DNA of 63,819 nucleotides, the filler included, from Bdellovibrionota bacterium (GTDB lineage Bacteria; Bdellovibrionota; Bdellovibrionia; Bdellovibrionales; JAEYZS01): NCBI GenBank assembly GCA_963169515.1. It is 6 parts of 6 records of this genome, joined end to end, with 100 filler letters (N's around TTAATTAATTAA, not from the genome) between each part and the next. Parts side by side here need not be neighbours in the genome. Positions count along the whole stretch, not along the records: positions 10,912 to 23,913 come from CAUJEF010000078.1; 5 more parts are not named here. One strand, 5' to 3'. This document shows positions 22,896 through 30,039 of the stretch, one piece after another (position 1 is the first letter of the stretch; every line of letters starts with the position of its first letter). The position numbers were made by a program, and so were the translations under genes. Below the pieces are notes generated by a model, which was not told where the DNA came from, ran no database searches, and saw only the letters and a list, made by a program, of their open reading frames with translations.

Positions 22896-23141
22896 TTGGA
22901 GCAACCTCAATACGTTTTGGATTGTTTGCGAGATGGCGACTACCGGATTACATTACATGCGAAGCAACGAATGGCTGAACGTAATGTCTCCTATGCTGAT
23001 ATTCGATCATGCAGTGAAACTGGAACGATTACGTTGGGGCCCGATGGCAAAATAAAGATTGTGGGCTCTGATATTGAAGGTGAAGAGCTAACTTTGATCT
23101 GTGCAGAAGAAGATAGTGTTTTAATTATCACGGTTTTTTAG
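22896..23141 (+). CDS. DUF4258/RelE-like toxin
   Basis: ITLHAKQRMAERNVS...VLIITVF. Confidence 0.75.
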   Translation: MEQPQYVLDCLRDGDYRITLHAKQRMAERNVSYADIRSCSETGTITLGPDGKIKIVGSDIEGEELTLICAEEDSVLIITVF

Positions 23142-23153
23142 GAGCCCTTAGGA

Positions 23154-23570
23154 GTGCTAATGAAAAAATGGAAAGAAAATCTCGCTGGCCTTATAAGTCT
23201 TGAATATGTTCATTTCATTAATGTCCCCATGAAAGATTCGAAACACGGCCCCGTGATCGACCTAGCGCCTGATGTATTGGAAACATTGGCAGCAAAAGCT
23301 GTGATTACCCACCGAGTTCCTCTTCGCGGAAAAGAAGTTAAATTTTTGAGAAAAACAATCGGTCTTTCGCTCGAAAAATTCGCGAACAAACTGGGTCTTA
23401 CTTCTGGAAGCGTCTTTCACTGGGAAAGGGCTGGAAATGAACGATTGGCCCCAATTAACGAGGCTGCCGTTCGTTCTCTTGTCGCTGAAGAATTGAATAT
23501 TGAAATATCGGGAAAGTTCTCGGACCTGCTTGGTGAAAAAATCTGCAAAATTAAAGTGAAGGCCAGTTAG
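23154..23570 (+). CDS. XRE helix-turn-helix antitoxin (MqsA/HigA-like)
   Basis: EVKFLRKTIGLSLEKFANKLGLTSGSVFHWE. Confidence 0.8.
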   Translation: MLMKKWKENLAGLISLEYVHFINVPMKDSKHGPVIDLAPDVLETLAAKAVITHRVPLRGKEVKFLRKTIGLSLEKFANKLGLTSGSVFHWERAGNERLAPINEAAVRSLVAEELNIEISGKFSDLLGEKICKIKVKAS

Positions 23571-23621
23571 GAAATCGAAAAACTGCTGACCTTGCTGAAG
23601 TTCCCCCCAATTCAAGTGAAC

Positions 23622-23853
23622 ACTTTATAACGCAGCCTTTCGTCTCCATGAGATGGTTGAATGTCCGTATTTCGGACGCAGCATTCTAGGTCCTCCTTGG
23701 AGATAGGGGGCGATATGAAACGTAGAAAAGCTGCGAGGCTTTATTATGTTAATTATCGGAAGGTTCTCCATAAACTTAACGGCCTTTGGAGTGTTGTACG
23801 TTTGTCCTTTCTCCTTGGGAAGTTGGTTTATTTTCTTTATGAAATACTGAGGT
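23622..23853 (+). repeat. Dispersed ~230-bp element, copy 1 (structured leader plus small ORF)
   Basis: Homologous to the minus strand of 29375-29605. Confidence 0.9.
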
Positions 23854-23855
23854 AG
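23715..23855 (+). CDS. 46-aa basic/hydrophobic peptide (type I toxin candidate), copy 1
   Basis: MKRRKAARLYYVNYRKVLHKLNGLWSVVRLSFLLGKLVYFLYEILR; AGGGGG SD; frame conserved without indels in copy 2. Confidence 0.6.
   Translation: MKRRKAARLYYVNYRKVLHKLNGLWSVVRLSFLLGKLVYFLYEILR
23753..23779 (-). promoter_or_regulatory. Sigma-28 (FliA)-type promoter antisense to the small ORF
   Basis: TTAAGTTT-N11-TCCGATAA versus the consensus TAAAGTTT-N11-GCCGATAA; identical in copy 2. Confidence 0.6.
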
Positions 23856-23913: not shown

Positions 23914-24013
23914 NNNNNNNNNNNNNNNNNNNNNNNNNNNNNNNNNNNNNNNNNNNNTTAATTAATTAANNNNNNNNNNNNNNNNNNNNNNNNNNNNNNN
24001 NNNNNNNNNNNNN
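23914..24013. other. Artificial contig linker
   Basis: N44-TTAATTAATTAA-N44. Confidence 0.98.
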
Positions 24014-24272
24014 CAACGGGTCCTGTCGGAAGCAAAAGTGTGAAGCCTTTTTTTAAATCGACCATCGTTGAATCGGACAACCACGCTTTCTGAGAGTTAT
24101 TGATTCTTTGTGAATGAAAGACACCGAACGGATTTTCCCAAAGTTCTGGCGAACGAATCCCCAGCTTTTCTGTTACGTCAATCAATGAGACCTTATAACC
24201 ATGCGTGGCCAATTCTTTAGCTAACCAATGCGCTCGCCCATAAGCAGACACCAAGGTTATTTTTTGTAACAT
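24014..24272 (-). CDS. Hypothetical protein with degenerate Rossmann-like N-terminus, 3'-truncated
   Basis: ITLVSAYGRAHWLAKELA..GYKVSLIDV; runs into the linker. Confidence 0.6.
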
Positions 24273-28218: not shown

Positions 28219-28318
28219 NNNNNNNNNNNNNNNNNNNNNNNNNNNNNNNNNNNNNNNNNNNNTTAATTAATTAANNNNNNNNNNNNNNNNNNNNNNNNNN
28301 NNNNNNNNNNNNNNNNNN
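28219..28318. other. Artificial contig linker
   Basis: N44-TTAATTAATTAA-N44. Confidence 0.98.
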
Positions 28319-29225
28319 CAATTCCGACGGTGGATCTCATTTGATTTTGGCGTTCACGCAATATACTTGCCCCACGAGTAATCTTTTCTATTGGGATAAA
28401 ACCTCCAATATTTAGAATTCGCACATTTTCTCGAATATATTTAAAAATATCTCTGTCGAGCCCATGGGATTCATTGGCTTCATTGATTCGAATTGCACCT
28501 CTTCTGAAATCTAAAACCTTAGTGCATGTAAACATCAAATCATGCAATTCAGCTGCGTTTACTTTTACATCCGAAATTATGCGATCTTTGATGCCCTCAA
28601 CCCATACTGCCTGTTTGGTCCCCCAAAACGGGGTGCCCAAGGTAATAGCTGCATCTAGATGTTTTACATATTGAGGAAAAAAGTCTGGGACACCAAATTT
28701 GCGCGGAATTATGGTCTGCAGAAAAGCATTAAATATCCACTGCGAACCCACCAGACCACCTTGAGAGTGCATGATAATAGATATTTTGTCGCCTTCACGA
28801 ATGGGTGTACCTGCGATGAAATATCGATTTACCTCAGCTCCGAACTCAGCCGCAAATCTGTAGCTTGTTTTATCCTGCAAGGTTGTGACAATTCTCCCTG
28901 TCTTTTTATGAATGCGGACCTTTCCATCTTTGTCACGTACAGGAACTGGCCCCTTCCCGCCTGTGTCGTAAGTCACAAGGACAACTTCATTATTATACTC
29001 TGGCCTAATTCTATTTAGATAAAGCTCAATTGCTTTGTCTAAATTAGGAAATGTTGTCGCATCCCCTGCAATCCCATGAATCAAAAAGACAATAAAACGA
29101 GGTTTCTTTCCAGCGTATTTAAATGGCGGAACCTGCAGCCCTAATTTATTTTTCGGAGCTAATACATCCGCAGCCATCGCGGCTTGAGCAGACAGAATTA
29201 ATAAAAGACTAAATAATATTTTCAA
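28319..29225 (-). CDS. Secreted alpha/beta-hydrolase (lipase/esterase-like), 3'-truncated
   Basis: Signal peptide; FLIHGI, MHSQGG nucleophile elbow, TLGTPFWG. Confidence 0.75.
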
Positions 29226-29351: not shown

Positions 29352-29513
29352 CTACATGGGCCCTATTTGGGCCCACCTCAGTATTTGATAAAGAAAATAA
29401 ACCAACTTCCCAAAGAAAACGAACCAACGTACAACGCTCCAAAGGCCGTTAAGTTTATGGAGAACCTTCCGATAATTAACATAACAAAGCGGTTGAGCTT
29501 TCCTACGTTTCAT
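29352..29513 (-). CDS. 53-aa basic/hydrophobic peptide (type I toxin candidate), copy 2
   Basis: MKRRKAQPLCYVNYRKVLHKLNGLWSVVRWFVFFGKLVYFLYQILRWAQIGPM. Confidence 0.6.
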   Translation of the reverse strand: MKRRKAQPLCYVNYRKVLHKLNGLWSVVRWFVFFGKLVYFLYQILRWAQIGPM

Positions 29514-29605
29514 ATCTCCCCCTATCTCCAAGGAGGACCTACCATAGTCCGAAGCCAACCTGAGCCTCGGCATTCTCATGGAGACGAATAATCGCGTCAC
29601 AAAGT
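29375..29605 (-). repeat. Dispersed ~230-bp element, copy 2
   Basis: Homologous to 23622-23853; begins at the tsaE stop codon. Confidence 0.9.
29449..29475 (+). promoter_or_regulatory. Sigma-28-type promoter antisense to small ORF copy 2
   Basis: TTAAGTTT-ATGGAGAACCT-TCCGATAA. Confidence 0.6.
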
Positions 29606-30039
29606 CAGAGCCTGTTGGCGGATGAGCCAGTTTTAAAGAATCTAACCTCACCTTTTCGGTCGATTTGGATCGAAACAACTTTCCATGATTTTGGAAAACT
29701 CAGATAAGACAATTTTTCAGCCCATTCGATCATGACAATATTTTCATCTCGAAACAGATCCCAAAAGCCTGTGGACTCAAGATCCTCTTCGTCTTTGACC
29801 CTGTAAAGATCAACATGGAATACCTCGGCAATTTTAGTCTCATAAGAGTTGATCACAGAAAATGTTGGAGATACGGCGCCAGTCCCACCCAGTAGCTCTA
29901 TCAGAAATTTTACAGATTGGGTCTTGCCGACGCCCAATTCTCCTGAAATAAGAACTACGGTCTGCTTACTGAGAACCGGAACAATTTGTTCTTTTAAAAA
30001 AAATCGCAACTCTTCTAAACTTCGAATCTCTGTCATCAC
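29605..30039 (-). CDS. tsaE: tRNA t6A biosynthesis ATPase
   Basis: GELGVGKT, SPTFS, HVDLYR, IEWAE. Confidence 0.94.
   Translation of the reverse strand: MMTEIRSLEELRFFLKEQIVPVLSKQTVVLISGELGVGKTQSVKFLIELLGGTGAVSPTFSVINSYETKIAEVFHVDLYRVKDEEDLESTGFWDLFRDENIVMIEWAEKLSYLSFPKSWKVVSIQIDRKGEVRFFKTGSSANRL

Follow-up and report, generated by a model that had tools for sequence, protein, structure and literature searches.

The described systems closest to the repeat reported here are the type I toxin–antitoxin pairs Ibs/Sib (QUAD) and Ldr/Rdl (LDR), which are multicopy intergenic units of a few hundred nucleotides with a very short open reading frame (ORF) and a narrow distribution. Both LDR and QUAD were first described as repeats, and type I families usually have a distribution that is narrow and lineage-specific. 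We describe here a repeat that is like them in these respects, from a Bdellovibrionota bacterium (GenBank assembly GCA_963169515.1). Two of its copies lie in a stretch of 63,819 nucleotides (the window), which consists of contigs joined by N/TTAATTAATTAA spacers. The best single reading of this lineage-specific modular repeat is a type I toxin–antitoxin-like module, a reading that we hold tentatively and rate at somewhat less than an even chance. According to PMC12390103, type I systems were known only from Proteobacteria, Firmicutes and Tenericutes, and a full-text literature search found no record in print of type I systems or repeats in Bdellovibrio.

The likeness to Ibs/Sib extends to the relationship between paralogs, which are near-identical but for short variable segments. 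Sib/Ibs paralogs are told apart, according to PMC2943612, by two highly variable regions that jointly determine cognate specificity, one a hairpin loop whose target is in the ORF and the other situated in the translation-initiation region. Unlike Ibs/Sib and Ldr/Rdl, the repeat has no sequence similarity to any known toxin family, its antisense RNA is a prediction, its copies are scattered instead of lying in tandem (two on contig C30 may be paired, at a distance of about 1 kb) and the unit carries a separately mobile 5' module. Unlike Ibs and Ldr, its peptide is longer, has a basic N-terminal and a hydrophobic C-terminal part, and shows no purifying selection at the protein level. With the mRNAs of hok/sok and AapA/IsoA it has in common a strongly folded predicted transcript of about 400–450 nt, Shine–Dalgarno (SD) and anti-SD motifs, and a predicted pairing of the pre-SD region with the stop region. 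It differs from them in that all of its pairings are predictions made on near-identical copies, with compensatory change in 0 of 96 pairs, and in having no U-tract terminator, no overlapping mok-like frame and no homology.

A seven-copy unit restricted to one lineage

A sequence-only reading of the window had described two look-alike elements on separate contigs in unrelated contexts, and this description holds. The 46 codons that the two share align without gaps and 37 of them are identical (80%, copy 2 against copy 1), and the two strings common to their leaders, TAGGTCCTCCTTGGAGATAGGGGG (23687–23710, plus strand, and 29518–29541, minus strand) and TTCGTCTCCATGAGA (23639–23653, plus strand, and 29574–29588, minus strand), have exactly two occurrences each in the window and practically none in shuffled sequence. 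Copy number and extent had been underestimated. A search of the organism's own genome (2.38 Mb, 173 contigs) found not two but seven copies, of 88–94% identity, on contigs C166, C30, C34/C31, C58, C65, C78 (copy 1) and C81 (copy 2). The 234 nt first proposed (23622–23855) form the middle of an intergenic repeat of about 440–480 nt, which in copy 1 runs from about 23580, past the stop codon and into the contig end at 23913. Overlooked in the shorter version were the opening of the leader, which is a separately dispersed repeat of about 80 nt, and the end of the unit, which extends about 130 nt beyond the stop codon. All seven copies are intergenic and their contexts are unrelated.

The two copies in the window are both deleted forms. 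Copy 1 has lost 85 nt of leader relative to full-length copies and is cut on its 3' side by the contig end; since its 3' part overlaps contig C30 exactly over 100 nt, it probably continues there, about 1 kb from another copy. In copy 2 a different segment, of 66 nt, is missing, and a GGGCCC-AAATA-GGGCCC hairpin replaces the usual 3' domain. The 85-nt skip is also present in one contig of DNA run X3, in which the depth is 78–90 over the element as against 10–12 in the flanks.

Within the scope of the searches that follow, the element is restricted to this lineage. In 60 relatives, the only sequence with blastn matches was a flanking gene. A six-frame search with a hidden Markov model of the peptide gave, in 384 genomes of the order, a best outside match that was partial and at the level of noise (E = 0.002 per genome) and, in 400 genomes of the phylum, none at E <= 0.001; these genomes of the phylum, about 780 together, thus gave no credible relative. 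A word-indexed protein collection contained only two near-identical ORFs, of 75 and 67 residues, and a set of 1.84 billion representative proteins only the near-identical 67-residue ORF and one repetitive false match. The peptide belongs to no Pfam family and has no likeness to known toxin families as far as these are in Pfam (Hok, Ldr/Fst, Ibs, TisB, ShoB, Zor, AapA, TxpA/BsrG and others). Rfam covariance models, run on the window copies and three full copies with E up to 10, gave nothing relevant, the only matches within the element being two weak ones, Histone3 at window 29354–29399 (14.6 bits, gathering threshold 34) and PutA_thermometer at L003 294–357 (19.5 against 51). Blastn found no match in plasmids or phages. 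An exact-pattern scan returned two chance matches in genome contigs (Actinomycetota and Myxococcales metagenome-assembled genomes), one in metagenome contigs, which from its translation we take to be a membrane-transporter-like gene, and none in viral contigs. As far as sequence comparison can tell, the element belongs to no described family.

Reading frame, fold and hypervariable loop

The ATG, the SD and the 46 codons are intact and free of indels in all seven copies, including the two deleted ones, whose leader deletions differ but have spared the ORF and SD block. The sequence-only reading had allowed that further copies might show frameshifts or stops; they show neither. In copy 1 the frame runs from the ATG at 23715 to the stop at 23853–23855 (plus strand), with an SD-like G-run ending 4 nt upstream of the ATG. 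In copy 2 it starts at 29513 (minus strand) and the stop is replaced by TGG, giving 53 codons and an end at 29352. One copy has a canonical AGGAGG SD. In a neutral star-tree simulation all seven frames stayed open in 2.5% of 20,000 trials, and the true probability is above this value because a star tree overcounts independent events.

A rule of 10 hydrophobic residues in 15 for proteins of fewer than 50 residues is set out by Fozo et al. (PMC2887945). The C-terminal half of the peptide just reaches this number: a hand count on the alignment gives 10 of 15 residues I/V/L/F/C/M/A at positions 27–41 of both copy 1 and copy 2. AlphaFold2 predicts a single helix over residues 3–45 (predicted local distance difference test 85). 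R29, K36 and E43 are spaced seven residues apart, a spacing that resembles the polar stripe of TisB.

The sense strand folds better than its complement. Its minimum free energy is −123 to −140 kcal/mol as against −93 to −114 kcal/mol for the antisense strand, a difference of 13–39 kcal/mol in favour of the sense strand in all five full copies; the full sense RNA has a z-score of −3.64, with none of 100 shuffles folding as well, and the predicted stems include G-U pairs, invariant between copies, which cannot form on the antisense strand. The partner of the SD in the predicted folds is either the CCUCC that precedes it or a UCUCC within the ORF, and the pre-SD region is paired over a long 5'–3' distance with the region of the stop codon. 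SD sequestration and 5'–3' long-distance pairing are the features by which T1TAdb recognises toxin mRNAs (PMC8594479). These pairings occur in single-sequence and in consensus folds, at columns that are invariant or changed on one side only. The pairings of TCTCCA with TGGAGA and of CCTCC with GGGGG, suggested from the sequence at the outset, are possible and appear in the folds; their columns are invariant and covariation cannot test them. One-sided changes that preserve a pair affect 23 pairs as against 7–12 in slid controls, a comparison biased toward the structure, which was derived from the same sequences.

The part of the unit that differs most between copies is the loop of a hairpin, AAAGC-N6-GCTTT, lying over codons 5–9. 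Its mean pairwise difference is 0.67 as against 0.071 in the rest of the shared region, so that it is about nine times more divergent and near saturation, and it ranks first of 175 windows of 6 nt. The loop bases are different in every copy. Since the variable block is not aligned with the codons and the other loops are invariant, this resembles the outcome of diversifying selection acting on a recognition loop in the RNA, not of neutral drift or protein variation. A weak antisense promoter-like sequence, TTAAGT-16-GATAAT (8/12 in a relaxed scan), is found inside the ORF in six of the seven copies, and an RNA made from it would begin exactly at the hairpin base. A 177-nt antisense segment folds with a z-score of −3.7; like the promoter-like sequence, this is no evidence of transcription.

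If the element is a type I toxin–antitoxin-like module, its mRNA, the extensively folded sense transcript, would encode a cationic peptide of 46 residues, with one predicted helix and a hydrophobic C-terminal half, and one of the three UCUCC/CCUCC anti-SD motifs would lock the SD of this mRNA. An antisense RNA, begun within the ORF, would extend over the start region and pair with it. The hairpin after the start codon, with its 6-nt loop different in every copy, may be the point of first contact, and the loop would keep the antisense RNA of each copy specific to its own mRNA, as the variable target recognition domain regions do in Escherichia coli Sib/Ibs. The repeat with its seven copies, the ORF and SD intact in each, the hypervariable loop, the better folding energy of the sense strand and the confinement to this lineage are direct observations; transcription, translation, toxicity, the antisense RNA and the sequestration of the SD are what we infer here. 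The type I interpretation as first put forward is supported in part. The architecture agrees with it (SD and ORF, predicted pairings, multiple copies, a hydrophobic half and a variable loop); of the defining parts, no antisense RNA was found and no purifying selection was detected at the protein level.

A number of results weigh against the type I interpretation. There are no homologues elsewhere, so that our deductions rest on seven close paralogs and have no independent evolutionary test. The ratio of nonsynonymous to synonymous change between paralogs is 0.76 (0.78 excluding codons 6–8), variable sites are distributed 11/11/8 over codon positions 1/2/3, and purifying selection on the protein is not detectable. 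The codon-usage score of the ORF lies at the 0.7–4.9th percentile of real 46-codon gene segments and at the 69–87th percentile of off-frame ORFs. Conservation is best in the last third of the ORF and the roughly 80 nt past the stop; it includes third positions and sequence outside the frame, and the constraint is therefore on nucleotides. R29 and K36 interrupt the hydrophobic stretch, and the ESM Atlas recognition value is 2006, as against the 2300 reached by most real families; the Atlas search was uninformative. The 96 predicted pairs contain no two-sided compensatory change, as noted above, and a 5' hairpin with a compensating stem that was convincing by eye proved, in a fixed register over 15 copies of the motif, no better than shuffles or slid controls and was given up. 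Strict scans for sigma-70 promoters and terminators found neither in a full copy or in copy 2, and in copy 1 gave one antisense site, TGGAGA-16-CATAAT (9/12), and two terminator-like sites, all within or near shuffle levels; in the relaxed scan this antisense site recurs in only one other copy, and matches of 8/12 are common. RNA runs X17–X20 contributed only five read-sized contigs, of 151–200 nt at a depth of 2–3, which are unstranded and possibly derived from DNA.

The dispersed 5' module and the alternatives

Several of these results are what would be expected if the element were a mobile intergenic repeat that is structured but codes for nothing (MITE-, REP- or PATE-like), with an accidental frame of 46 codons, perhaps moved as folded single strands by Y1 (HUH) transposases, landing at the 3' ends of genes and constrained in its DNA or RNA fold. 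We regard this as a serious alternative, only a little less probable than the type I interpretation. It accounts for the weak protein-level signal, with no third-position bias and a codon usage like that of the upper tail of spurious ORFs, and for the strongest conservation lying past the stop codon. By a rough estimate, chance would give about one ORF of 46 or more codons in every 450 nt when both strands are counted, and the internal deletions of 85 and 66 nt show copies decaying.

The behaviour of the 5' module points the same way, and here too the type I interpretation is weakened. The module is a repeat in its own right. Its core pattern (Table 1) has 20 matches in this genome and, in 200 other genomes of the order (six of the same family included), a single match, with one mismatch, in G255. 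Alone, the module occupies at least 8 strong sites and about 10 weaker ones; it has about 24 copies in all. It is thus found at more than 15 sites away from the long unit, and it often overlaps gene ends, as a mobile repeat would. Genes whose last codons and stop fall within it are tsaE (copy 2), a cation-efflux gene (C155) and a 253-residue gene (C58). In copy 2 its first 35 nt or so cover the last codons and TGA stop of tsaE (29605–29642, minus strand, about 12 codons), and it appears from the sequence to supply the C-terminal tail of TsaE and, likewise, of the products of the other two genes. A solo module at C19 5873–5960 (L078) directly follows a sequence like the 3' end of a tRNA (GGTTCAAATCC...CCA). 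In two places another sequence, a "tail" of about 110 nt, comes after the motif, and the 3' 170 nt of the helix-turn-helix (HTH) gene beside copy 1 are homologous to such motif-plus-tail repeats elsewhere (C145 29170–29027 and C155 11807–11661), so that the C-terminus of this gene seems to be built from repeat sequence. Among 23 motif sites the downstream neighbour lies on the opposite strand in 17 and the upstream neighbour on the same strand in 12 (crude ORF calls). Judged from such comparisons, the repeat family is modular and behaves like inserted DNA. Because the 80-nt module is also scattered alone and overlaps the 3' ends of genes, the whole module has probably spread as mobile DNA.

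The genome is rich in potential agents of such movement, with twelve Y1_Tnp (IS200-like/RAYT-like) ORFs, and it also contains several other repeat modules. Seven of the Y1 ORFs are close paralogs of 180–194 residues, with a divergent eighth on C110, and conservation among the paralogs is limited to the gene itself and some 60 nt before it. On C145 a copy of the motif precedes a Y1 gene by 470 nt. Against the involvement of these enzymes, the Y1 genes are associated with a different, separate repeat module of about 100 nt, which is also found at C77, C99 and C8, sometimes as inverted pairs. Lined-up copies have fuzzy left and right borders, and at their ends no terminal inverted repeats, direct repeats or target-site duplications were seen (by inspection only); no empty-site joint was found at the C166 locus, the one locus looked at, in four DNA runs (X3, X6, X9 and X10). 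As to the further possibility entertained in the sequence-only reading, that the element is the end of a known insertion sequence, no transposase adjoins any of the copies and there is no plasmid or phage match. Genome-wide, there is one IS110 copy, located elsewhere, no TnpB, no reverse transcriptase, and five tyrosine recombinases, none of them adjacent.

Like REP/REPIN-RAYT, PATE (IS200/IS605-derived) and MITE repeats, the element is a structured intergenic sequence confined to one lineage, frequently lies where genes end, and is a modular mosaic that decays by deletion in a genome rich in Y1 genes. It is unlike them in that no terminal inverted repeats or target-site duplications were seen and that the Y1 genes are flanked by a different repeat; it is also far longer than a REP (about 450 nt), and it has kept an SD-preceded ORF and one hypervariable loop. 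These last features are those which a neutral repeat leaves unexplained, namely why a single 6-nt loop is near saturation while the other loops are invariant, and why ORF, ATG and SD survive in all seven copies.

The type I and mobile-repeat accounts could also be combined. A self-spreading type I module would couple an SD-locked toxin mRNA and its antisense RNA to a mobile 5' module of about 80 nt that lands at gene 3' ends and rewrites the last codons, each new copy being insulated by rapid diversification of a 6-nt kissing loop. We consider this specific combination improbable.

A second alternative, which we judge to be quite unlikely, is that the copies are paralogous structured regulatory or dual-function RNAs outside the toxin–antitoxin systems, in which the fold is the product, the loop addresses targets and the ORF is untranslated or encodes a harmless peptide. 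The better folding of the sense strand, its exclusive G-U pairs and the excess of one-sided pair-preserving changes (with the bias already mentioned) would agree with this, as would a hypervariable loop that behaves like a specificity element. Speaking against it are the missing promoter and terminator, the lack of an Rfam match and the lack of two-sided covariation. The related idea that the loop acts as a guide was set aside, as the loop has no consistent match to the flanks or interior of its own copy, the part of the genome to which this search was confined.

That the unit is the end of a larger mobile element (an insertion sequence, integrative element or prophage) which is otherwise unassembled, as several copies touching contig ends (C78, C30 and C34/C31) in an assembly of 173 contigs might suggest, is very improbable, given that five copies are assembled across both ends with the same extent of about 450 nt between unrelated flanking genes, that a depth of about 8 times the flank matches seven assembled copies, that exact contig overlaps of 83 and 100 nt explain the contig-end cases, and that no transposase is adjacent and no plasmid or phage matches.

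Neighbouring features and significance

A same-strand gene lies less than 200 nt upstream in five of the seven copies, and in the other two the upstream neighbour is divergent. Upstream of copy 1 are a DUF4258 gene (81 residues, E = 1e-10; 22896–23141, plus strand) and a weakly HTH_3-like gene of 138 residues (23154–23570, plus strand), which together are a type II toxin–antitoxin-like pair; the 5' module of copy 1 begins 10 nt past the stop of the second. Copy 2 lies between tsaE (29605–30039), which is upstream, and an esterase-like gene downstream. The positions of the features are collected in Table 1. The window spacers near the copies are at 23914–23993 and 28220–28320, and ORFs that run into them, such as 23958–24272 (minus strand), are artefactual at their ends.

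Table 1 Positions of the features of copies 1 and 2 in the window, and contigs carrying Y1_Tnp ORFs
Feature	Position	Strand	Basis
Copy 1, 5' module, ~80-nt dispersed repeat (core RACGCR-N4-TTCKTCTCCATGA)	23580..23664	+	nhmmer match C78 12669-12753, mapped by offset
Copy 1, hairpin GTCCGTATTTCGGAC, 7 pairs, invariant loop	23663..23677	+	helix 2 of predicted folds
Copy 1, junction of 85-nt internal deletion	23686..23687	+	alignments to full-length copies
Copy 1, invariant block TAGGTCCTCCTTGGAGATAGGGGGCGAT: anti-SD-like CCUCC, SD-like GGAGA, G-run SD	23687..23714	+	alignment, predicted pairings
Copy 1, 46-codon ORF and stop (MKRRKA...YEILR)	23715..23855	+	intact in 7/7 copies
Copy 1, hypervariable 6-nt loop, between AAAGC and GCTTT	23732..23737	+	codon 6 position 3 to codon 8 position 2
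Copy 1, start of conserved 3' domain, cut by contig end	23856..23913	+	alignment
Copy 2, 5' module	29564..29642	-	nhmmer match C81 1324-1246
Copy 2, long hairpin (GCCGAGGCTCAGGTTGGCTTCGGAC...) and SD block; 66-nt segment missing upstream	29514..29563	-	alignment
Copy 2, ORF, 46 shared codons and 7 more	29352..29513	-	translation, alignment
Copy 2, hairpin GGGCCCAAATAGGGCCC, in place of 3' domain	29358..29374	-	alignment
Y1_Tnp ORFs, ~182 residues	C69, C145, C128, C7, C137, C84, C1, C110		
Y1_Tnp ORFs, ~217-244 residues	C139, C152, C105, C96		

The 5' module has some further features of its own. A frame of 13–17 codons (MR.LNVRISD.AF...) starts from the conserved CCATGAGA of the motif in the six copies that retain the region (for example L020 1186–1222, minus strand); as it has no SD, and the short frames in solo copies of the motif are unrelated, it is probably not translated. 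A role of the module as promoter for downstream genes is unlikely, since the downstream gene is mostly on the opposite strand (the 17 of 23 sites given above), and it has no sigma-70 match. Four ORFs each have a copy of the 5' motif or of the long element on either side, in direct or inverted orientation, as if they were cassettes or landing zones (C155 11082–11603, C166 13611–14858, C142 6347–6826 and C30 18199–18855). Two of these ORFs were checked and have no Pfam family, and some have by eye a hydrophobic N-terminus like a signal peptide.

Should the ORF be accidental, the element would be one more lineage-specific structured repeat, whose main value would be to annotation: assemblies break at it, tsaE and other genes take their final codons from it, and its ORF is called as a protein of 67–75 residues. 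Should the peptide be toxic and controlled by an antisense RNA, the element would be a type I toxin–antitoxin family in a phylum for which we have found none in print. It would then also provide a clean natural case of paralog insulation, in which seven near-identical copies differ almost only in one loop of 6 nt.

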